Assembly (NCBI GenBank): GCA_965231105.1
Contig: OZ246417.1
Coordinates: 384,908 to 448,907 of the forward strand
DNA from: an uncultured Candidatus Saccharibacteria bacterium
GTDB lineage: Bacteria > Patescibacteriota > Saccharimonadia > Saccharimonadales > JACDBH01
Direction: 5' to 3'
Length of the DNA stretch: 64,000 bases
Below the pieces are notes generated by a model. The model did not search any database, was not told the DNA's origin, and saw nothing but the letters and a program-made list of their open reading frames with translations. Below, piece after piece: positions 27,050 to 35,472 of this stretch (the stretch's first letter is position 1; each line of letters starts with the position of its first letter). Both the position numbers and the translations under genes were made by a program.

Positions 27050-27940
27050 TTATGCCTTTACGCTATTTTCACGAAGTCGTTTAATACGTTCTTCAATTGG
27101 TGGATGGGTACTAAATAGGTGGGCAATGGAACCGCCACGAAGTGGGCTGGCAAAGAATAAGTGAGCAGTACTAGTGTTCTGGCGGCGGGTCGCTGAACCA
27201 TGCGCACCTATTTTTTCGAGTGCGCTTGCGAGCCCCTCAGGATAGCGGGTGGCTAACGCGCCGGTTGCATCTGCCAAATATTCACGCTGGCGTGAGATGG
27301 CAAGCTGAATAAGTGTGGCAATAATAGGTGTTAGGATGGCCGCAACTATACCTAAGATAAATAAGATCTGTCCCGCCTTACTATCATCATCGTTATCCCT
27401 GCCACCAAACCAGCTCATTCGTAGAAGGATGTCTGCAATAAGTCCAATAGCCGCTACCATAGCGAAAGCCACAATATTAACCCGTACGTCATAGTTCTTT
27501 ACATGCCCTAGTTCATGCGCCATCACACCTTCAAGTTCGGAATCATCGAGAGCGTTTAACAATCCTGTGGTCGCGCAAACAGATGCGTGGCTTGGGTCTC
27601 TTCCGGCTGCGAAGGCATTCAGCCCAGGATCTTCCATAATATAGACCTTGGGCATGGGAAGTCCTTCGGTAATGGCAAGGTTCTCAACAATACGATACAG
27701 CCGTGGATCATCTCGCTTTTCAATCTGCTTTGCGCCATTAAGAGCTAATGCAAGACGTGAAGCACTGAAGTAACTAATTAAAGTATATATAGCGGCACCA
27801 ATTAGAACAGATATCGCGATACTTGGGCGGCCATCTCCGTACAGTATGCTTAAGAGCCAGCTCAATCCACCAATAATAAGCAGAAACAACGCCATAATAA
27901 TGACGGTGCGACGCTTATTAGCGGCAATGGCACTATACAT
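27050..27940 (-). CDS. htpX: zinc metalloprotease HtpX
   Basis: M48 HEXXH motif (MAHELGHVKNYD) and a 4-TM layout. Confidence 0.9.
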   Translation of the reverse strand: MYSAIAANKRRTVIIMALFLLIIGGLSWLLSILYGDGRPSIAISVLIGAAIYTLISYFSASRLALALNGAKQIEKRDDPRLYRIVENLAITEGLPMPKVYIMEDPGLNAFAAGRDPSHASVCATTGLLNALDDSELEGVMAHELGHVKNYDVRVNIVAFAMVAAIGLIADILLRMSWFGGRDNDDDSKAGQILFILGIVAAILTPIIATLIQLAISRQREYLADATGALATRYPEGLASALEKIGAHGSATRRQNTSTAHLFFASPLRGGSIAHLFSTHPPIEERIKRLRENSVKA

Positions 27941-27953
27941 TCTGATTTATCCT

Positions 27954-28520
27954 CTAAAACTTAACTTCAACGGGCTTTTCAACGTCTTCACGTTCGCCGT
28001 CTGCAACATCAAAGAATTCACGATCGCTATTAAAACCGAGCATACCTGCAAAGATATTGGTAGGAAATACTTTGCGCTTGGTGTTAAAGTCGCGGACAAC
28101 ACCGTTATAGAAGCGGCGAGCAGCTTGAATCTTATCTTCAGTATCAACTAGTTCTGCCTGTAATTCCTTAAAGTTTTCATTAGCTTTAAGGTCTGGATAG
28201 GCTTCTGCAACTGCAAAAATACTCTTAAGAGCCGTCTGGAACTGGTTTTCAGCTTCAGCGGTTTCTGCAGGAGTTTTCGCGTTCACGATAGAAGCACGTG
28301 CATTGGTAACTTTTTCAAAGACATCTTTTTCGTGTGCAGCATATCCCTTCACCGTGTTAAGAAGGTTCGGGATAAGATCGAGGCGGCGCTTCATCTGAAC
28401 CGTAATATCGCTCCATGCTTCATCGGCACGGATATTCAATTTAATGAGGCCGTTGTACATAGCAGCAAGAATTGCTCCTATAAGCACCACGACGCCGATG
28501 ATAATAATCAAAGCAGTCAT
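27954..28520 (-). CDS. lemA: LemA family protein
   Basis: 188 aa with an N-terminal TM. LDLIPNLLNTVKGYAAHEKDVFEKVTNARA and RRFYNGVVRDFN are typical of LemA. The pairing with htpX is common. Confidence 0.88.
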   Translation of the reverse strand: MTALIIIIGVVVLIGAILAAMYNGLIKLNIRADEAWSDITVQMKRRLDLIPNLLNTVKGYAAHEKDVFEKVTNARASIVNAKTPAETAEAENQFQTALKSIFAVAEAYPDLKANENFKELQAELVDTEDKIQAARRFYNGVVRDFNTKRKVFPTNIFAGMLGFNSDREFFDVADGEREDVEKPVEVKF

Positions 28521-28570
28521 TGTTTCGTTTCCACTCCGTTAGTTAGTACTTAAATTATAGCACTTTAGAA

Positions 28571-28598
28571 GAAAAAAGACCTCTTTTCAGAAGGTCTT
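28571..28598 (-). terminator. rho-independent terminator of the tRNA-Cys/HNH/tRNA-Leu unit
   Basis: The minus strand reads AGACCT-TCTGAAAAG-AGGTCT followed by TTTTTT, 8 nt after the tRNA-Leu CCA. Confidence 0.7.
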
Positions 28599-28605
28599 CT
28601 ATATC

Positions 28606-28690
28606 TGGTGCGAGAGGCGGGACTTGAACCCGCACGCCTTGTGGGCACAGCATTTTAAGTGCTGCGTGTATACCATTCCACCACTCTCGC
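28606..28690 (-). tRNA. tRNA-Leu (anticodon UAA)
   Basis: Class II tRNA: acceptor GCGAGAG/CTCTCGC, anticodon arm CAGCA-CTTAAAA-TGCTG, long variable arm, T-loop TTCAAGT, encoded CCA. Confidence 0.9.
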
Positions 28691-29167
28691 ATGGCCTGCC
28701 TTTTTATTTTTACCACGATGTGTAGGTTGTAGGCTATGACAATTTGGGCAAAGTATCCTTAAATTTTCAAGTCGGTTATCTTGCCGATTGCCATTTATAT
28801 GATCAAGCTCTACCGGTATTCTGCCATCCAGAGACCTTTGCTCCCAGCCACATAACTCACATTGCGGTCGCTTGATGCCTGTTTTAAATAGTCTGGCCTT
28901 TAGCTTATAGCTCTGAATATTGCTATTTTCTACAAGTAGAGTTTCTAGCGGAGCTTCAATTTTTGGTTTGAATGTTAGTCCAACATTCCAGCCCATACCT
29001 GTAAAGTGTGCTGTAGATAAGTTCAGCTCACTAATCTGACGCTTTACTTGCTCATAGTTACCGCCCGCAGGAACCAAGCCTAACTCAATTAAGACACCCC
29101 TGACACTGCGACCATTTTTTACTGCCACTATGAGTTGTTCTTTTGACCAGCTACGATTTTTTGGCAT
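28655..29167 (-). CDS. HNH endonuclease (free-standing, homing-type) embedded between two tRNA genes
   Basis: 170 aa with HNH core ELDHINGNRQDNRLENLRILCPNCH plus the Cys pair CELCGW. The last 12 codons are encoded by the 5' half of tRNA-Leu, and the stop TAA is the tRNA anticodon triplet. Confidence 0.8.
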   Translation of the reverse strand: MPKNRSWSKEQLIVAVKNGRSVRGVLIELGLVPAGGNYEQVKRQISELNLSTAHFTGMGWNVGLTFKPKIEAPLETLLVENSNIQSYKLKARLFKTGIKRPQCELCGWEQRSLDGRIPVELDHINGNRQDNRLENLRILCPNCHSLQPTHRGKNKKAGHARVVEWYTRST

Positions 29168-29213
29168 ACACGTAATTTAGCACATCTATCACGTTTACCA
29201 AGACGGATTATAC

Positions 29214-29287
29214 TGGAGGCACCTACGGGTAACGCTCCCGTCTACGAGGTTTTGCAGACCTCTGCCTAACTTCTCGGCCAAGGCGCC
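29214..29287 (-). tRNA. tRNA-Cys (anticodon GCA) with non-canonical T-loop
   Basis: Acceptor GGCGCCT/AGGTGCC, anticodon arm GAGGT-CTGCAAA-ACCTC, discriminator U, encoded CCA. The T-loop is AGCGTTA instead of TTCRANN, and the D-loop lacks GG. Confidence 0.6.
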
Positions 29288-29303
29288 TTAAAATACATCG
29301 GTT

Positions 29304-29332
29304 ATTATAGCGGGTCTATCTGATATCACCAA
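29304..29332 (-). promoter_or_regulatory. sigma70-like promoter of the tRNA-Cys/HNH/tRNA-Leu unit
   Basis: The minus strand reads TTGGTG-17 nt-TATAAT, 16 nt upstream of the tRNA-Cys 5' end. Confidence 0.5.
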
Positions 29333-29374
29333 TGGGTTAGACACGGACAATATATTGCTTTTTTATTAAGCTTA

Positions 29375-29383
29375 TGCTATAAT
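29375..29383 (+). promoter_or_regulatory. extended -10 promoter (TGcTATAAT)
   Basis: TGCTATAAT ends 9 nt before ATG 29393. There is no SD, so the leader would be 2-3 nt. Confidence 0.5.
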
Positions 29384-29392
29384 TGCCCACTT

Positions 29393-30376
29393 ATGAAAAC
29401 ACGTGCAGTTATTGCTGGAACAGTTTTCGGCCTTGCGGCTTTAGCGCCTGCAGTTGCTGAAGCTGGCCCAAACGGTGTGTATACATGTACCGATATTAAT
29501 GGCGGTACCATTGATGCAGCCGATGGCCTTCCTATTAAAGAAATGCAGATAGAGCTTGGTTTGTATGCTGATGGTGTTTTTGGTCCCCAGACCTGCAAGG
29601 CAGTAACGAACGAGCTTACCGAACAAGGAATGTTAAGCGGTAAGGGCGGAACGGTAAAGATTGGTCCTAGGGCTGTACAGGCCGTACTTGGCAGCAAGCC
29701 TGCTGAGATTCCTACTTCTACAATACCGAGCACCACAACTGCTAATACCACTCCTTCACCAAACGCCTGCCCTACAAATGTAACCAGTTCGGGTGAAATT
29801 AGTGTAGCCTGCCGTAATGAAGCAGTGAATAAACTTCGTGCCGGTGGGTTTGTAGACGAAAGTCTTGCCCGTGCCGTAAAAGCCTTCCAAATTGAAGCTG
29901 GTGTTTCCGGAAATGGCCAAGCTGGTTTTGGTGTCTTAGGTCCTAAGACTTATTCAAGCATTATGAGCGGTAGCGGCTTTAATACTATTAATGCCACTGC
30001 TGAATTACAAAACGGTATCTTTATCGACCTTTCAGACCAGACACTGAAGATGTATAAGAACGGCTCGTTAGTTGTTGGCGCCTTAGTTTCTACCGGTAAA
30101 GATGGCATGGAAACTCGCACAGGATCAAAGAAAATTCAGCGTACTCGTACCGATGAAGACGGTTGGGTAACCTCAGACCTTCAGGCCGCTGGTACTGATC
30201 CTGCTATGTATAAGCCATACTATTTTGACGGCGGGCAAGCTATCCACGGCACCCGTGTTGAATCAAAGCTTGGCACACCTGCAAGCTCAGGTTGTGCGCG
30301 CACAGACAATCTCGTGCAAGATACCCTCATTGCCAAAGGCATGAAGGTGGGCATGAAAGTTATCGTTCAGGAATAG
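29393..30376 (+). CDS. L,D-transpeptidase with two PG-binding repeats
   Basis: 327 aa with signal peptide MKTRAVIAGTVFGLAALAPAVAEA. PG_binding_1-like repeats: LGLYADGVFGPQTCKAV and FQIEAGVSGNGQAGFGVLGPKTYSSI. YkuD catalytic motif IHGT...SSGCART. Confidence 0.88.
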   Translation: MKTRAVIAGTVFGLAALAPAVAEAGPNGVYTCTDINGGTIDAADGLPIKEMQIELGLYADGVFGPQTCKAVTNELTEQGMLSGKGGTVKIGPRAVQAVLGSKPAEIPTSTIPSTTTANTTPSPNACPTNVTSSGEISVACRNEAVNKLRAGGFVDESLARAVKAFQIEAGVSGNGQAGFGVLGPKTYSSIMSGSGFNTINATAELQNGIFIDLSDQTLKMYKNGSLVVGALVSTGKDGMETRTGSKKIQRTRTDEDGWVTSDLQAAGTDPAMYKPYYFDGGQAIHGTRVESKLGTPASSGCARTDNLVQDTLIAKGMKVGMKVIVQE

Positions 30377-30389
30377 TCCTTCTTAAAAA

Positions 30390-30420
30390 TAAAAATCCCA
30401 CTGTAATAGTGGGTTTAATT
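30390..30420. terminator. bidirectional hairpin terminator (ldt on + strand, tRNA-Phe on - strand)
   Basis: CCCAC-TGTAATA-GTGGG. On the minus strand it is followed by ATTTTTATTTTT directly after the tRNA-Phe CCA. Confidence 0.6.
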
Positions 30421-30496
30421 TGGTGGCTCCTCCCAGACTCGAACTGGGGACACAAGGCTCTTCAGGCCTCTGCTCTACCAACTGAGCTAAAGAGCC
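30421..30496 (-). tRNA. tRNA-Phe (anticodon GAA)
   Basis: Acceptor GGCTCTT/AGGAGCC, D-loop AGTTGGTA, anticodon arm GAGGC-CTGAAGA-GCCTT, T-loop TTCGAGT, encoded CCA. Confidence 0.9.
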
Positions 30497-30664
30497 GCAT
30501 CAGATGTGGTAACGCAAGGTACTATAACAGATATAACAGAGGTTTTTCAAGCCGCTTACAACGCTATGCTACAATAAATTCAAACAAACATAAGCGGGTA
30601 GGAGCACCATGCCATATAAAAGGTATGATGTTCCTACTCTTTTCTTTTGGGATGTGTCTTTACC

Positions 30665-30693
30665 TTGCGCAAAAACCCCGAATTCGCTATACT
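30665..30693 (+). promoter_or_regulatory. sigma70-like promoter of tRNA-Gly
   Basis: TTGCGC-17 nt-TATACT, 13 nt upstream of the tRNA 5' end. Confidence 0.55.
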
Positions 30694-30706
30694 CTTCCTC
30701 TGTTAT

Positions 30707-30783
30707 GCGGGTTTAGCTCAGTTGTTTAGAGCGCTTCCTTGCCAAGGAAGAGGTCGAGAGTTAGAGTCTCTTAACCCGCACCA
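30707..30783 (+). tRNA. tRNA-Gly (anticodon GCC)
   Basis: Acceptor GCGGGTT/AACCCGC, anticodon arm CTTCC-TTGCCAA-GGAAG, encoded CCA. D-loop AGTTGTTTA and T-loop TTAGAGT imply U19:A56 instead of G19:C56. Confidence 0.85.
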
Positions 30784-30796
30784 ATTTGACACCCAG

Positions 30797-30826
30797 AAAA
30801 GCTCCCTTGATGGGGAGTTTTTTTAT
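30797..30826 (+). terminator. rho-independent terminator after tRNA-Gly
   Basis: GCTCCC-TTGAT-GGGGAG followed by TTTTTTT. Confidence 0.7.
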
Positions 30827-30995
30827 TTATTGGTCGGATCAACAGTTTCAACCTACGTCCGGTGAGATAGGCCTCAGGACACAAGAAGCATGGTTTCCTT
30901 GATTGAACTGACGGTTATAACCTACAGGGCTAGACATATGCGGGAGGCTCAAAACCTCCTAGAACTCCGATGGGGAGATGGATTCCTCTAGACGC

Positions 30996-31024
30996 TTGAC
31001 TTGGTGAGAGTTACGCTTCATAAC
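30996..31024 (+). promoter_or_regulatory. sigma70-like promoter, leaderless geometry (helicase gene)
   Basis: TTGACT-17 nt-CATAAC. The hexamer ends 7 nt before ATG 31032 and there is no SD. Confidence 0.45.
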
Positions 31025-31031
31025 TTATTGC

Positions 31032-33731
31032 ATGGCAACAGTTGGTCAACAGATACAAGAAGCTAACAAGGCAATATGCGAAAACATAGAGAGCTTAAAA
31101 GATAATCGTCCTCTGTTATCTAAGAATATACTGTCACAAGCTAGAAATCTGGTTGAAGGCGTTGCGGTGCTCGTGCATACAGGCGACATCAACCGTGAAT
31201 TTGACTATCCTGCAACTGGACCGGCGATTGCTCACGCAGGATCGGGTAACAAAAATATTAATTTTCTAAGCCGCTTTCATGATCTGATATTAGAAAGTGC
31301 ATCACACTATACATTAAATGGCGATATGTCTGAGCGACTAATGCTGAAGTACTACGAGTACCTCCTCCGTATACGTGATTTACTACTGAAATCTTACAAT
31401 ATTAAATCACTCTCGAATCTCGAGGACTTCCCTGTAGATATTGACCCTGCATTGCGCGAATATCATGAAAAAATATCAAAACAGATACAAGCATTTAGAT
31501 TAAGTCCTAGCGAAGGTTCGCGCAGCAGATACTACATACATAATGTAAAGCCATTCTTTGTGCAGGGACGAATATATTATGAAGTAACCTTTCACAATGC
31601 AAGTGATAGAACGGCAAAGTTTGATCGTTTCATTGCCTTTACGGATATAGATATCACTGGCAAATATGCTGCATATCTATCTCTTAAGCGAGATGCAATT
31701 GATGTTATTGGCCACAATATGCCAATAATCTTAATAACTGATTGGGCTGTATCTATTCGACCATGTGAGTTTAATAATTTCGCTAAACTTTTTGGGGATG
31801 AGATTAAGGTCGAGTCCTCACAGGCAGAGTACCGTGCTCTGATGTCTCACTTAACTCAAACGTCTTCGAGCCTGCTAGACATTATGAAGCTTGATGACTC
31901 TGCATTTATGAACCTACAAAATACTGTTTTGGAGAAAGCTAGAACAGCTCCAAAAATATTTCCAGTACTAGATAAAGCTAGGAAACTTATAGCTAATAGT
32001 AGTGATGGTAGCAATGTCATTAGATATCTCTTACTGCGAATGAATAATGTGAATTTGAAAGACCAATATCATCCTGCAGAGTGCAGTCTTTTATCGAATC
32101 TTTGCTTAAACAATGGCTGCAAACCATTTGATTCTATGCCCTTTTGCACATCTCCCAAAAGGCATAATCCAAGAATTAGTGATCTATTTCAAAGTTTGGA
32201 TGCTGAGTCACGAACACACGAACTGCTGGCTCGTAAAATCAAAACGAACGTTCAACAAGAAAGCAGGCTGTATACACCTTTAGAAGAATTAGATAGCTTC
32301 GAAGAGGTAGATACATTAATAGCTCGGTACAACAGCGCTCTTTGGCGAGGGCACCGTTATCGACGAAGCATTGCGAAAGACAAAGGACACCTTTTTATAC
32401 GCGAGTATGAAGAGGACACGTATGCAATTATCAGAGAACTACAGCAGCATGCGACCAATGGATTAGACGGCTATGAAACTGCAGTTGATCGCTGGACTCA
32501 AGAAACCGCATTACAATTGGATGATCCTACGAAAGTCGAAGCTTTGAAATTACTCTTTATCAAATCACAGGTAGCCTTGATTTACGGCGCGGCAGGCACG
32601 GGGAAAACGAGAATGATCGAATACGTCGCTGATATGTTTTCAGACAAGAACATACTTTTCCTCGCTCATACTAATCCAGCAATAAACAATCTAGTACGAA
32701 GAGTTAAAGTACAGAATGGAACATTTAAAACAATTGCTAGCCACAATTACTCAGGCGATAGCACTGAATATGACATATTGGTCGTTGATGAGTGTAGCAT
32801 CGTGAGCAATGCAGATTTCCTAGCTGTACTTCAAAATACAAAGTTCAAACTACTGCTGTTAGTTGGTGACGTTTATCAGCTCGAGCCAATAGAATTTGGT
32901 AACTGGTTTGCACTCGTGCCGTCTTTTCTGCCAAATACTTCAATATTTGAGCTGACAGAGCCTTATAGGACAAAAAATCCTAATCTGCTTAAATTGTGGA
33001 ATTCGGTTCGTAAACTTGAAAACAACATTGCTGAAGTAATTGCCCAAAATGGCTATTCAGCAAAATTGGATGAGTCATTATTTACGGCACAACAAGAAGA
33101 TGAAATCATTCTCTGCCTGAACTATGACGGGTTATATGGAATAAATAATATCAATCGCTTTTTACAGAGTGCAAACCCTAATAAAGCAGTTACGTGGGGT
33201 GTTGCAACCTATAAAATAGGTGATCCAATACTCTTTAATGACAGCGACCGATTTCGTCCGGTAATTTATAACAATCTCAAAGGTGTCATCGTTGATATAC
33301 AAAAATCCCCAGATTCCATACAATTTGATGTTCAGTTGGACCGAACGGTGACAGAGCTGGACACTTATGGAACTGAGCTGAAATTAGTAGGCGATTCTAT
33401 CGTGCAGTTCACGGTTTATAGGCGTGTCAGCTCAGATGATGACGATGAAACCTCAAATACCATTATTCCCTTTCAAGTAGCTTACGCTGTATCAATTCAT
33501 AAAGCGCAAGGCCTAGAATATGATTCAGTCAAAATTGTCATTACAGATGCGAATGAAGATGATATCACGCACAGTATTTTTTATACCGCGATTACTAGAG
33601 CCCGCAACAGCCTTGTCATCCATTGGTCGCCAGAAGTGCAAAATGCAATTATCGAGAAAATGGACAGACCTAATAGCAAAAAGGATGCTGGGCTGATTGC
33701 CGCCAGGCGCAATTTGAGACTAGTACAATAG
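31032..33731 (+). CDS. SF1 (RecD/Dna2-like) helicase/AAA ATPase with ~510-aa orphan N-terminal region
   Basis: 899 aa. Walker A LIYGAAGTGKTRMI, Walker B ILVVDECSIV, LLLVGDVYQLEPI, UvrD_C-like YAVSIHKAQGLEYDSVKIV and YTAITRARNSLVI. Residues 1-510 match nothing I recognise. Codons are visibly AT-rich. Confidence 0.8.
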   Translation: MATVGQQIQEANKAICENIESLKDNRPLLSKNILSQARNLVEGVAVLVHTGDINREFDYPATGPAIAHAGSGNKNINFLSRFHDLILESASHYTLNGDMSERLMLKYYEYLLRIRDLLLKSYNIKSLSNLEDFPVDIDPALREYHEKISKQIQAFRLSPSEGSRSRYYIHNVKPFFVQGRIYYEVTFHNASDRTAKFDRFIAFTDIDITGKYAAYLSLKRDAIDVIGHNMPIILITDWAVSIRPCEFNNFAKLFGDEIKVESSQAEYRALMSHLTQTSSSLLDIMKLDDSAFMNLQNTVLEKARTAPKIFPVLDKARKLIANSSDGSNVIRYLLLRMNNVNLKDQYHPAECSLLSNLCLNNGCKPFDSMPFCTSPKRHNPRISDLFQSLDAESRTHELLARKIKTNVQQESRLYTPLEELDSFEEVDTLIARYNSALWRGHRYRRSIAKDKGHLFIREYEEDTYAIIRELQQHATNGLDGYETAVDRWTQETALQLDDPTKVEALKLLFIKSQVALIYGAAGTGKTRMIEYVADMFSDKNILFLAHTNPAINNLVRRVKVQNGTFKTIASHNYSGDSTEYDILVVDECSIVSNADFLAVLQNTKFKLLLLVGDVYQLEPIEFGNWFALVPSFLPNTSIFELTEPYRTKNPNLLKLWNSVRKLENNIAEVIAQNGYSAKLDESLFTAQQEDEIILCLNYDGLYGINNINRFLQSANPNKAVTWGVATYKIGDPILFNDSDRFRPVIYNNLKGVIVDIQKSPDSIQFDVQLDRTVTELDTYGTELKLVGDSIVQFTVYRRVSSDDDDETSNTIIPFQVAYAVSIHKAQGLEYDSVKIVITDANEDDITHSIFYTAITRARNSLVIHWSPEVQNAIIEKMDRPNSKKDAGLIAARRNLRLVQ

Positions 33732-34665: not shown

Positions 34666-35472
34666 ATGCTCATGAAACACACTAATACATGGATTATTCC
34701 CGCCAATCCAAATATTTATGATCATCCCAGTGCATTCGCAAAGTATGGAATTATAACTTGGGCACTTAAGATAAATGTAGACGTAGGCGACACCATCTAT
34801 GTCCGTGTTAGCGGGCCCGGTGCTCATACCCTGTATAAATGTATTGCAGTAAAAGTAGGCGTCCCGAGAACAGATATGGTTGGGGCCGAATTTTGGAACG
34901 AACCATTTGAATACGATGAAGAAAGGCAGTATGTCGATCTAAAACTTCTCGATACAACAGAAGACGTAGGAGTTAGTTTTAAAGAGCTGCAGCAGCATGG
35001 CCTGAACGGGTCACACCAAGCAGCGCATCACTTAATAGATCCTCTCAAGGCATACATCGAATCATTTTTTCGGACTACCAATGGTCAGAAAATCGAGGAG
35101 ATTGCGGACAGCATCGCCACCGAAGATGATTTACAAAATATTACCAGTGCACTCAAGGCTCTATCTAGTCAGTTGCCACCTAAAAGAATTGCACTTATAG
35201 CTCAGAAAATTGCCAGGAATCCAAAAACAGCTCGCTTAGTTAAAGAAAGTAAACAGTACGTTTGTGAGATCTGTAACCGTAAACCCTTCATACAAAAGAA
35301 CGGCAAGCCATATGCAGAAGCAGATCATATAGAACAACTTGGTGGTGAGACAAGAGGCCTCGACACCCCAGAAAACATACGCTGTCTTTGCGCCCAGTGC
35401 CATGCTATAGTCACCTATGGATCACAGGAAGTTATTAACAAGCTACTAAGCTCAACCAAATGGCGATCGTAA
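34666..35472 (+). CDS. PUA-like (EVE/ASCH-type) N-terminal domain fused to HNH nuclease; candidate modification-dependent (type IV) restriction enzyme
   Basis: 268 aa; the likely true start is ATG 34672. The N-terminus WIIPANPNIYDH...WALKINVDVGDTIYVRVSGPG..LYKCIAVKV resembles PUA-fold reader domains. The C-terminus CEICNRKPF...AEADHIEQL...NIRCLCAQCHAIV is an HNH motif. Confidence 0.65.
   Translation: MLMKHTNTWIIPANPNIYDHPSAFAKYGIITWALKINVDVGDTIYVRVSGPGAHTLYKCIAVKVGVPRTDMVGAEFWNEPFEYDEERQYVDLKLLDTTEDVGVSFKELQQHGLNGSHQAAHHLIDPLKAYIESFFRTTNGQKIEEIADSIATEDDLQNITSALKALSSQLPPKRIALIAQKIARNPKTARLVKESKQYVCEICNRKPFIQKNGKPYAEADHIEQLGGETRGLDTPENIRCLCAQCHAIVTYGSQEVINKLLSSTKWRS

Follow-up and report, generated by a model that had tools for sequence, protein, structure and literature searches.

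The window, which is the whole stretch of 64,000 nucleotides analysed here from an uncultured Candidatus Saccharibacteria bacterium, carries on its minus strand an HNH gene that is placed between a tRNA-Cys(GCA) gene and a tRNA-Leu(UAA) gene, with its ORF running into the latter. The features of this locus, in window coordinates, are as follows:

29304..29332, minus strand: candidate promoter for transcription of tRNA-Cys (TTGGTG, 17 nt, TATAAT), read from the sequence
29214..29287, minus strand: tRNA-Cys(GCA) (ARAGORN; Rfam tRNA, 40.3 bits, focused scan)
29168..29213, minus strand: 46-nt spacer, with which the HNH cassette begins on its left side (sequence)
28655-29167, minus strand: HNH ORF, 170 aa (ORF call)
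28700..29167, minus strand: conserved core of the HNH protein, residues 1-156 (ORF, Pfam, alignment, AlphaFold2 model)
28655..28699, minus strand: non-conserved C-terminal tail of the HNH protein, residues 157-170, and stop codon (sequence, ARAGORN, ORF)
28606..28690, minus strand: tRNA-Leu(UAA), intact (ARAGORN; Rfam tRNA, 62.4 bits)
28574..28600, minus strand: intrinsic-terminator-like hairpin with T-run (terminator scan)

The order and the coordinates of the tRNA-Cys, the 46-nt spacer, the HNH ORF, the tRNA-Leu(UAA) and the terminator, as given by an earlier reading of the bare DNA (the sequence-only reading), are all correct, and ARAGORN places the tRNA-Leu at 28606-28690 and the tRNA-Cys at 29214-29287. 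The T-loop of the tRNA-Cys is atypical (AGCGTTA); this gene is missed by Rfam in a 4-kb scan and is recovered only with the focused scan, for which the gathering score is 29. The candidate promoter boxes upstream of it, with the -35 TTGGTG at 29332-29327 and the -10 TATAAT at 29309-29304, end 16 nt 5' of tRNA-Cys +1. This promoter, also proposed in the sequence-only reading, is present in the sequence but is not flagged by the consensus promoter scan, because its -35 box matches at three of the six bases only. No terminator-like site is found on the minus strand between the tRNA-Cys and the tRNA-Leu, and the transcript of tRNA-Leu (and of HNH) would be ended by the terminator-like hairpin at 28574-28600.

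Codons 159-170 of the HNH ORF (ARVVEWYTRST) are read out of positions 1-33 of the tRNA-Leu. The anticodon begins at tRNA-Leu position 34, which is 28657, and therefore the TAA stop codon of the HNH ORF (28657-28655) is the anticodon, in agreement with what had been claimed for the end of this ORF.

Domains and predicted fold of the HNH protein

Profile matches place the product of the ORF in the HNH (beta-beta-alpha-metal) nuclease superfamily, with Pfam detecting HNH_3 (PF13392; 4.7e-7, 29.8 bits, cut-off 24.8) and HNH (PF01844; 1.3e-4, 22.5 bits, cut-off 21.4). In the AlphaFold2 model (mean pLDDT 83), the N-terminal domain (residues ~9-47) is HTH-like and has three helices, and the HNH domain spans residues ~74-150, having the strand-strand-helix at residues 120-145. 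The residues H123, N135, H144, C103, C106, C140 and C143 are invariant in an alignment of 30 sequences, and this conserved set corresponds to the catalytic His/Asn/His and to two CxxC zinc-binding pairs. The best Foldseek matches are the generic HNH nucleases McrA, ScoMcrA, Cap5 and PacI, none of which reaches E<=0.001; the structural neighbours of the model in the PDB are generic HNH and winged-helix matches only, and in NCBIfam there are sub-threshold HNH-motif matches alone, to ZorE and IscB. A GIY-YIG enzyme of the SegB type is rejected for the window protein, as Pfam finds HNH domains only. The dN/dS of the HNH gene is 0.05-0.16, and by this measure the gene is under purifying selection.

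Association of the HNH family with the tRNA-Leu(UAA) gene

At least 201 relatives were found. In 79 of the 80 homologous GTDB loci from genomes of the ultra-small bacteria of the candidate phyla radiation (CPR), tRNA-Leu(UAA) lies directly downstream on the same strand. When considering the upstream side, 91 HNH-positive loci show a tRNA within the stretch of DNA examined; the nearest one is tRNA-Cys(GCA) in 85 of these loci, and in 61 of the 85 it is on the same strand and within 150 nt. The three long-form homologues that were examined, in genomes of 68-72% GC, all stop where a convergent tRNA(UAA) gene has its 3' edge. For the phage copies, identities are 38-55%. In 50 of the 80 viral loci, tRNA-Leu(UAA) is immediately adjacent, versus just 3-4 times for the equally abundant tRNA-Ile(UAU) and tRNA-Met genes, and most of the phage relatives sit downstream of tRNA-Leu(UAA). 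Full-length phage relatives that adjoin tRNA genes are S-CRM01 g201, Citrobacter phage Michonne gp141, which finishes 1 nt before a tRNA-Leu gene, and a protein of Pseudomonas phage B8.

The link of the nuclease family with tRNA-Leu(UAA), as shown when comparing these loci, holds in three different geometries. The phylogenetic spread of HNH genes near tRNAs, which the sequence-only reading had singled out as informative, is found to be that of a family standing beside tRNA-Leu(UAA) in CPR bacteria, in other bacteria and in phages.

Filled, empty and decayed sites

In a sample of loci picked by the tRNA-Leu sequence alone, 37 have an intact HNH gene, ~4 have a decayed copy (L097, L104, L166 and L201) and 61 are without HNH; ~59% of the comparable tRNA-Leu loci lack it. 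Uninterrupted tRNA-Cys/tRNA-Leu pairs, which had been proposed as the empty sites to look for, do exist in related genomes: tRNA-Cys is found 2-98 nt upstream in 22 of the 61 HNH-free loci, and empty sites with the same synteny as filled ones are seen in the filled/empty pairs L089/L084, both in the same tRNA array, and L071/L148, for which the flanking proteins are 83% identical over 1273 aa. The same empty layout, with a 12-nt gap, is that of cysT-leuZ of E. coli (from a look-up of glyW-cysT-leuZ); BLAST of the window tRNA-Leu against E. coli genomes gives no match. The same Cys-Leu spacer is occupied by LAGLIDADG ORFs in L142 and L130, and by a decayed LAGLIDADG ORF in L186.

At the window locus both tRNAs are intact and the ORF lies outside any intron or intein, as for a free-standing endonuclease gene. 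Presence and absence at one fixed site in relatives, degenerate copies and replacement by another endonuclease family are all observed, the last two as in a homing cycle. A gene conserved in synteny in every relative and independently transcribed would speak against the sequence-only reading, and the HNH gene goes half of this way: synteny is kept in many relatives and an independent promoter is probable, yet more than half of the comparable tRNA-Leu loci are without the gene. After correction, filled and empty sites do not differ at any column of the tRNA-Leu alignment; a target inside the tRNA would leave the resident copy without visible protection. It is possible that the target spans the junction, or that the enzyme is a tolerated nickase.

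HNH identity plateaus at ~60% whatever the divergence of the flanks, and climbs only where the flanks are more than 70% identical; this comparison of flank and HNH divergence reveals no clear recent-transfer pair. The nearest HNH neighbours share a taxon label in 33 of 48 cases (18.4 expected), and the mean HNH identity is 59.6% within Saccharibacteria and 59.4% between classes. The tRNAs are weak markers of co-inheritance (rho 0.08-0.25). With intact copies far outnumbering decayed ones and with a low dN/dS, selective retention fits as well as frequent homing.

The spacer upstream of the HNH gene

The absence of an SD from the 46-nt spacer before the HNH ATG, noted earlier, is confirmed from the sequence. 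The TATAAT directly following the tRNA-Cys CCA (29212-29207), which was taken to be the only signal in this region, is also there, but an extended -10 (TGCTAAATT, 29182-29174) is found as well, ending 6 nt before the HNH ATG. When the family is considered, an extended -10 that ends 6-8 nt before the start is present in 52 of 113 loci, versus 0.6% of random positions and 6.6% of flanking genes. Judged from these counts, the HNH gene very probably has its own start-proximal promoter. With its -10 box 6 nt from the ATG, such a promoter would generate a leaderless HNH mRNA, and the message is probably of this kind, rather than being translated off the Cys-Leu precursor without a signal.

The window spacer has a D-loop-like motif, GGTAAAC, at 29199-29193, 32 nt before the ATG, and GGTAnAC is enriched 33-fold upstream of the HNH start in the family. 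In 8 of the 113 loci, the HNH start is immediately preceded by a pseudogene of the tRNA-Leu 5' half; there are none in shuffles and none at any HNH-free locus. The window spacer itself was considered as a decayed tRNA-Leu 5' half, but its alignment is not above chance and a remnant is not demonstrable beyond the 7-nt motif. An AUG-occluding RNA hairpin in this spacer was also discarded, with no significant fold being found (z = -0.54).

The C-terminal tail and the anticodon stop

Across the family, conservation of the HNH protein stops at residue ~156, which leaves 15-47 nt to tRNA-Leu +1. The tail that follows varies in sequence, and in the model of the window protein its pLDDT is below 50, predicting disorder. 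The stop codon is in or past the tRNA in 63 of the 113 CPR loci, and the overlap with the tRNA is absent in 50 (44%). All three reading phases into the tRNA are found (32/20/18), and the stop codon is the anticodon in 4 of the 113 loci. An ORF that enters this tRNA-Leu in phase 0 meets TAA at the anticodon, and the anticodon stop is therefore not beyond chance. As far as these loci tell, it is an accident of tight packing and not a designed feature.

Discussion

We consider it likely, from the comparison of sequences, that the window gene belongs to a free-standing, homing-type HTH + HNH endonuclease family whose link is with the DNA of the tRNA-Leu(UAA) gene. The presence of a homing-type endonuclease between otherwise adjacent tRNAs is well supported by the empty sites, the decayed copies, the LAGLIDADG replacements and the phage relatives within tRNA clusters. 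The earlier proposal of an HNH gene inserted between two tRNAs is in agreement with this, when considering its homing-type nature and the adjacency of the tRNAs elsewhere, but the arrangement is not a local one, being that of a large and very widespread family of selfish type with a fixed site. In CPR bacteria, a cassette of ~0.5 kb would fill the otherwise 2-24-nt gap of an ancient tRNA-Cys/tRNA-Leu(UAA) pair. In this cassette, a short leader region that has its own extended -10 promoter would precede the ORF, whose translation would run on into the tRNA gene up to the first in-frame stop, here the anticodon TAA, with the transcript finishing at the terminator of tRNA-Leu itself. The nuclease would recognise, and cut or nick, DNA in or beside HNH-free tRNA-Leu(UAA) genes, and its gene would then be copied into the empty site by repair; the upstream GGTAnAC inverted repeats may be a binding site or a scar. 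At loci like that of the window, RNase P cleavage would remove the stop codon, generating a low output of nuclease.

It can also be proposed that the HNH gene is a domesticated host gene, acquired once near the CPR root, inherited vertically and kept for a benefit to the cell, for example defence or tRNA-gene maintenance, such that its absences are secondary losses. This reading and that of a homing endonuclease are not mutually exclusive. It agrees with the low dN/dS, with the 37 intact versus ~4 decayed copies in the sample picked by tRNA-Leu sequence, with the conserved dedicated promoter, with the taxon labels common to nearest neighbours and with the way HNH identity follows flank identity at close range. 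Nevertheless, domestication seems unlikely in view of the many comparable tRNA-Leu loci without HNH, the unrelated LAGLIDADG genes in the same spacer, the fresh-looking tRNA-Leu 5'-half pseudogenes upstream of some copies, and the close relatives, differently oriented, at tRNA-Leu(UAA) of 70% GC bacteria and of phages; identity within Saccharibacteria is also no higher than between classes. A quite improbable scenario is that CPR (and some GC-rich) bacteria keep the nuclease under selection because it attacks incoming DNA that has a foreign tRNA-Leu(UAA) gene, which would make this gene a host-phage battleground of marker exclusion. Phages of these hosts often have tRNA-Leu(UAA) genes, and in phages rival copies of the nuclease are found beside them. 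In this scenario the GGTAnAC repeats would be a self-operator, and expression would be held low by translation running on into the tRNA.

The sequence-only reading expected a competition between tRNA maturation and HNH expression, and in its strict form this would mean that the overlap exists to set RNase P processing against HNH translation, the anticodon being used as the stop. The stop codon of the window ORF does fall inside the mature tRNA, stops in or beyond the tRNA are seen at 63 of the 113 CPR loci, and ORF and tRNA have no terminator between them. We hold this coupling to be very improbable, since neither the overlap nor the anticodon stop is conserved, all three frames are used, and the tail is unconserved and predicted to be disordered. 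Moreover, the long forms are convergent and most phage forms lie downstream, and therefore co-transcription in this order is not a property of the family. With the overlap, the phases and the orientations varying in this way, the competition was dropped as a family feature and is a possible side effect at the window locus. Almost no weight can be given to a relic of an intron-encoded endonuclease, or to a part of an integrase-type island that targets tRNA genes. It is in tRNA-Leu(UAA) genes that a bacterial group I intron is classically found, and partial tRNA-Leu copies are found beside some cassettes, but the tRNA-Leu is uninterrupted, the insert of ~0.5 kb holds a single ORF without an integrase and leaves no space for a ribozyme, and the partial copies are upstream 5' halves and not 3'-end att duplications. 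Rfam finds no intron RNA family, including Intron_gpI, at E<=1 in 27500-31500, no other RNA family besides tRNA in this region, and no match in the 885-nt insert in L135/L163. Both a ribozyme-borne ORF in the anticodon loop and an integrase-mediated island were rejected on such grounds.

The best functional analogue of the window HNH is SegB of phage T4, which has its gene within a tRNA cluster, cuts the tRNA genes of SegB-less phages internally and drives the preferential inheritance of the region (PMC2330249). Both genes lie between tRNA genes and are missing from related genomes. SegB is a phage GIY-YIG enzyme with a relaxed specificity for many tRNA genes, whereas the window HNH is an HTH+HNH protein, is chromosomal in CPR bacteria and goes with one tRNA, tRNA-Leu(UAA), which it abuts or overlaps. 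By analogy, the window protein may function like SegB, without membership of its family. Phage T5 encodes, in its tRNA region, the F-TflI/II/IV enzymes, which are described as HNH site-specific endonucleases (Akulenko et al. 2004, as cited in PMC2330249). These and many unstudied 'HNH endonuclease' ORFs of phage tRNA arrays resemble the window gene by location, and the phage relatives of the window HNH, unlike the CPR copies, are mostly downstream of the tRNA.

Other comparisons concern intron-encoded enzymes and introns. I-HmuI and I-HmuII are intron-encoded HNH homing nickases of Bacillus phages that can act on occupied and empty alleles, and nicking of this type would explain the missing immunity polymorphism of the tRNA-Leu. 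I-TevI represses its own synthesis by means of an operator at its own promoter that resembles its homing site, and this operator offers a possible parallel to the GGTAnAC inverted repeats that precede HNH. These three enzymes are intron-encoded, whereas the window HNH is free-standing and its nicking and binding are putative. In cyanobacteria and plastids, a group I intron resides in tRNA-Leu(UAA), the same tRNA gene being a long-lived home of a mobile element; unlike this intron, the window locus has no ribozyme, its tRNA is intact and its ORF is outside the tRNA.

Most of what is known of free-standing homing endonucleases comes from phages. The nuclease family described here keeps a constant place next to one particular tRNA gene in much of the CPR, in high-GC bacteria unrelated to these and also in phages, and the same tRNA-Leu(UAA)-adjacent site is used by a LAGLIDADG family of different origin; no description of a chromosomal occupancy of the Cys-Leu junction in CPR bacteria was found in the searchable literature. 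Many odd C-termini of database proteins are explained as translated tRNA, the recurrent annotation artefact being ORF calls that run through tRNA genes. The HNH family is a testable candidate for a tRNA-gene-specific nuclease, for which natural filled, empty and decayed alleles are available. If the nuclease is of benefit to its host, it would be a homing endonuclease recruited for the conflict between host and phage over tRNA genes.

The HNH locus and its protein

The HNH endonuclease gene of the window is enclosed by two tRNA genes, and the layout proposed in the sequence-only reading (both tRNAs, the spacer, the ORF, the stop on the anticodon and the hairpin) is confirmed by ARAGORN, Rfam, the ORF call and the sequence itself.

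Features of the locus
29287-29214, minus strand: tRNA-Cys(GCA) (ARAGORN)
29213-29168, minus strand: spacer, 46 nt (sequence)
29167-28655, minus strand: HNH ORF, 170 aa (ORF call)
28690-28606, minus strand: tRNA-Leu(UAA) (ARAGORN; Rfam, 62.4 bits)
28600-28574, minus strand: terminator-like hairpin (window scan)

Position 34 of tRNA-Leu(UAA), the first anticodon base, is at 28657, and therefore the TAA stop of the HNH ORF is the anticodon, with HNH codons 159 to 170 being the translated tRNA sequence. The tRNA-Cys scores 40.3 bits in a focused Rfam scan (gathering score, 29) and is not called by Rfam in a 4-kb scan, being lost to the Rfam filters. Its T-loop (AGCGTTA) is atypical, being TTCGAAT or TGCAACT in relatives, and positions 54 and 58 seem to be exchanged (A54/T58). 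The window sequence contains TTGGTG-17-TATAAT as well as the TATAAT that follows the tRNA-Cys CCA; the former was missed by the promoter scan because its -35 is weak.

Pfam assigns HNH_3 and HNH to the ORF, both above threshold. In an alignment of 30 sequences, conservation of the family extends from M1 to K155 (…CPNCHSLQPTHRGKNKK), with H123, N135, H144 and two CxxC pairs invariant and all residues past K155 variable. In the AlphaFold2 model (mean pLDDT 83), a linker joins a three-helix N-terminal domain (residues 9-47) to the HNH core, and residues 156-170 have pLDDT < 50. As the tail is both variable and modeled at such low pLDDT, the 12 tRNA-encoded codons lie outside the functional protein. 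When the model is compared with the PDB by Foldseek, all matches are to generic HNH nucleases (McrA, ScoMcrA, Cap5 and PacI) or to winged-helix domains, and none reaches E ≤ 0.001. A second, unrelated HNH protein of the window, a 268-aa ORF (34666-35472, plus strand) with a C-terminal HNH-like motif (…CEICN…EADHIEQ…CLCAQCH), is matched weakly by tblastn with the HNH query (35% identity over 56 aa, E = 0.003).

Linkage of the family to tRNA-Leu(UAA)

A search of 90%-identity clusters gives at least 7,979 relatives of the protein, which also matches 287 clusters at 50% identity (E ≤ 1e-30). In 80 homologous loci drawn from one-genome-per-species contigs (Saccharibacteria, Paceibacterota, Nomura-, Yanofsky-, Magasanik-, Doudna- and Woesebacteria and others; 53-72% identity), tRNA-Leu(UAA) is directly 3' of HNH on the same strand in 79. 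When both samples from the candidate phyla radiation (CPR) are pooled, the retrieved DNA of 91 of the 113 HNH-positive loci includes an upstream tRNA, which is tRNA-Cys(GCA) in 85, on the same strand and within 150 nt in 61 of these 85. The C-termini of the best matches resemble translated tRNA (ARVVE, ARVVEW, …ELVDSADLKS…GFDSRPAHH, VAPVGFEPTL). Deposited ORFs of the family often begin inside an upstream tRNA or cross a whole tRNA gene, as the last two of these endings illustrate (entries P0038, P0068, P0087, P0002, P0018, P0078 and others), an artefact of gene calling that recurs at tRNA junctions.

The conserved HNH end (…THR) lies 15-47 nt 5' of tRNA +1 in 67 of 70 loci, and all three codon phases of tRNA +1 relative to HNH are used (32/20/18). 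Among the 113 loci, the HNH stop is upstream of the tRNA without overlap in 50, inside the tRNA 5' of the anticodon in 38, on the anticodon in 4, inside the tRNA 3' of the anticodon in 16 and beyond the tRNA, the ORF reading through, in 5. Judged from these sequences, the HNH tail is the tRNA gene spelled out up to the first stop, and the anticodon stop is one incidental outcome.

Occupants of the Cys-Leu spacer

A metagenome scan used a tRNA-Leu(UAA) pattern built from the anticodon arm and the T-arm only, so that this locus sample is independent of HNH. It yielded 37 loci with an intact HNH upstream of tRNA-Leu(UAA), 6 with a partial match, 61 without HNH and with at least 560 nt upstream to inspect, 14 with too little upstream DNA and 2 in which tRNA-Leu(UAA) is not called. 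Four of the six partial matches are truly decayed, with an internal deletion and stops (L097), only the C-terminal 64 aa (L104), only residues 106-156 (L166) or a break into two ORFs (L201); the other two are cut by contig ends.

The uninterrupted tRNA pair expected of an empty site is found in 22 of the 61 HNH-free loci, with tRNA-Cys 2-98 nt upstream on the same strand, and filled and empty sites form syntenic pairs. The empty L084 (Cys-14 nt-Leu) and the filled L089 (Cys-535 nt-Leu) share the same tRNA array, and the proteins flanking L148 (empty) and L071 (filled) are 83% identical over 1273 aa. The cysT-leuZ pair of Escherichia coli also has the empty layout, with a 12-nt gap. LAGLIDADG endonuclease ORFs fill the spacer of L142 and L130 (Pfam, 3.8e-13 and 5.3e-10), and that of L186 holds a decayed LAGLIDADG copy. 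Two unrelated endonuclease families and decayed copies at one site present, at the level of sequence, the classic picture of a homing site.

Other spacers differ. The identical L135 and L163 carry an 885-nt insert in which no ORF is convincing and no Rfam family reaches its gathering score. In L092 the opposite strand encodes a Cys-rich ORF (150-179 aa) that has no Pfam match and contains an HNH-like motif (…FDHIDP…CANCYKKH), and L147 has a 139-aa ORF not assigned to a family; both ORFs may be further occupants. Pseudo-tRNA pieces (3'-half or T-arm) between tRNA-Cys and the HNH start in L047, L041, L076 and L072 suggest repeated rearrangement at this site.

Sequences upstream of the HNH start

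An extended -10 (TGnTAnnnT) ends 6-8 nt 5' of the HNH start in 52 of the 113 loci, compared with 0.6% of random positions and 6.6% of the starts of flanking genes; in the window it is TGCTAAATT (29182-29174), ending 6 nt 5' of the ATG. An SD-like motif is present at 3 of the 113 HNH starts. In the flanking long ORFs of L002-L201, with starts set by a crude first-ATG rule, an SD-like 4-mer occurs in -18 to -4 in only 12%, and the 6.6% refers to an extended -10 whose end is 4-9 nt 5' of the ATG. The lack of an SD at HNH alone is therefore not diagnostic, and weak-SD or leaderless initiation may be common in the sampled CPR genomes. The HNH mRNA would be leaderless, running into tRNA-Leu.

The D-loop-like GGTAnAC is enriched 33-fold within 100 nt upstream of HNH and its reverse complement 24-fold, both with preferred positions. 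Upstream of HNH, 39 of 112 loci have perfect inverted repeats of 7 bp or more (14 expected), and phage copies have the same inverted repeat, around TATAAATA. Recognisable tRNA-Leu 5'-half pseudogenes directly precede the HNH start in 8 of 113 loci; such matches are found neither in shuffles nor at HNH-free loci, and they are not identical to the functional tRNA-Leu of their own locus. In L004 the pseudogene spans tRNA-Leu positions 3-42, its former anticodon loop, now TGTATAAT, being 3 nt 5' of the ATG. The window spacer retains GGTAAAC (29199-29193) as the sole surviving D-loop-like trace; its whole-length alignment with tRNA-Leu is no better than chance, and it has no significant RNA fold.

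Other geometries and inheritance

Long forms of the protein (273-292 aa) occur in genomes of 68-72% GC, and in all three contexts examined they end at or enter the 3' end of a convergent tRNA(UAA) gene. The tRNA(UAA) genes beside long forms in ~70% GC genomes (L204, 3836-3913, minus strand; L207, 3849-3924, minus strand) are short (74-78 nt); these short tRNAs, found also at some phage loci (L210, for example), are without the long variable arm expected of bacterial tRNA-Leu and have the anticodon loop CTTAAAA of canonical tRNA-Leu(UAA). Viral contigs hold 354 relatives, and among the best 80, tRNA-Leu(UAA) is the immediate upstream neighbour in 43 and the immediate downstream neighbour in 7. 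The equally abundant tRNA-Ile(UAU) and tRNA-Met rarely adjoin HNH. The phage spacer from tRNA-Leu to the HNH ATG is usually 43-52 nt. More distant relatives in tRNA arrays end 1 nt before tRNA-Leu(UAG) (Citrobacter phage Michonne gp141), follow tRNA-Leu(CAA) (S-CRM01 g201) or lie between tRNA-Gln and tRNA-Arg (Pseudomonas phage B8). Since the association with tRNA-Leu(UAA) persists when orientation and host change, its best explanation is that the tRNA gene is recognised as DNA, and not that the two genes are co-transcribed.

The gene is under constraint, with dN/dS of 0.05-0.16 in five recent pairs with estimable dS. HNH identity is ~61% at any flank identity between 25% and 60% and reaches 70-99% only where flanks are > 70% identical; its mean is 59.6% within Saccharibacteria and 59.4% between classes. 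In 33 of 48 cases (18.4 ± 4 expected), the nearest HNH neighbour carries the same taxon label. These values fit local vertical descent together with one of two further effects, saturation in a protein under tight constraint or an exchange between classes in the more distant past. Filled and empty sites do not differ at any position of tRNA-Leu.

Proposed mechanism

Among characterised enzymes, the nearest analogue is T4 SegB, whose gene lies in a tRNA cluster and which cuts inside tRNA genes of SegB-less phages (PMC2330249), although SegB is a GIY-YIG enzyme and the window protein an HNH one. By fold family, the T5 F-Tfl HNH enzymes (cited in PMC2330249) are nearest to the window protein. In the literature, no account was found of an endonuclease family that is chromosomal, spread across CPR and fixed at tRNA-Leu(UAA).

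The window HNH is probably a free-standing homing-type HTH+HNH endonuclease that recognises DNA within or next to tRNA-Leu(UAA) genes and has been propagated alongside this gene; from the comparisons we infer cleavage, homing, leaderless initiation and a role of the upstream repeats. In CPR genomes it occupies the Cys-Leu gap; it would be transcribed from its own start-proximal promoter, probably also by read-through from tRNA-Cys, and end at a terminator borrowed from tRNA-Leu. At the window locus, a transcript cut by RNase P at tRNA +1 would lack a stop and break off four codons past the conserved core, which would limit nuclease output. The competition between RNase P and HNH translation proposed in the sequence-only reading is plausible at this locus as a side effect and nothing more. 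The headline of that reading, the anticodon stop, is incidental. The family-level linkage behind this stop is substantial and testable.
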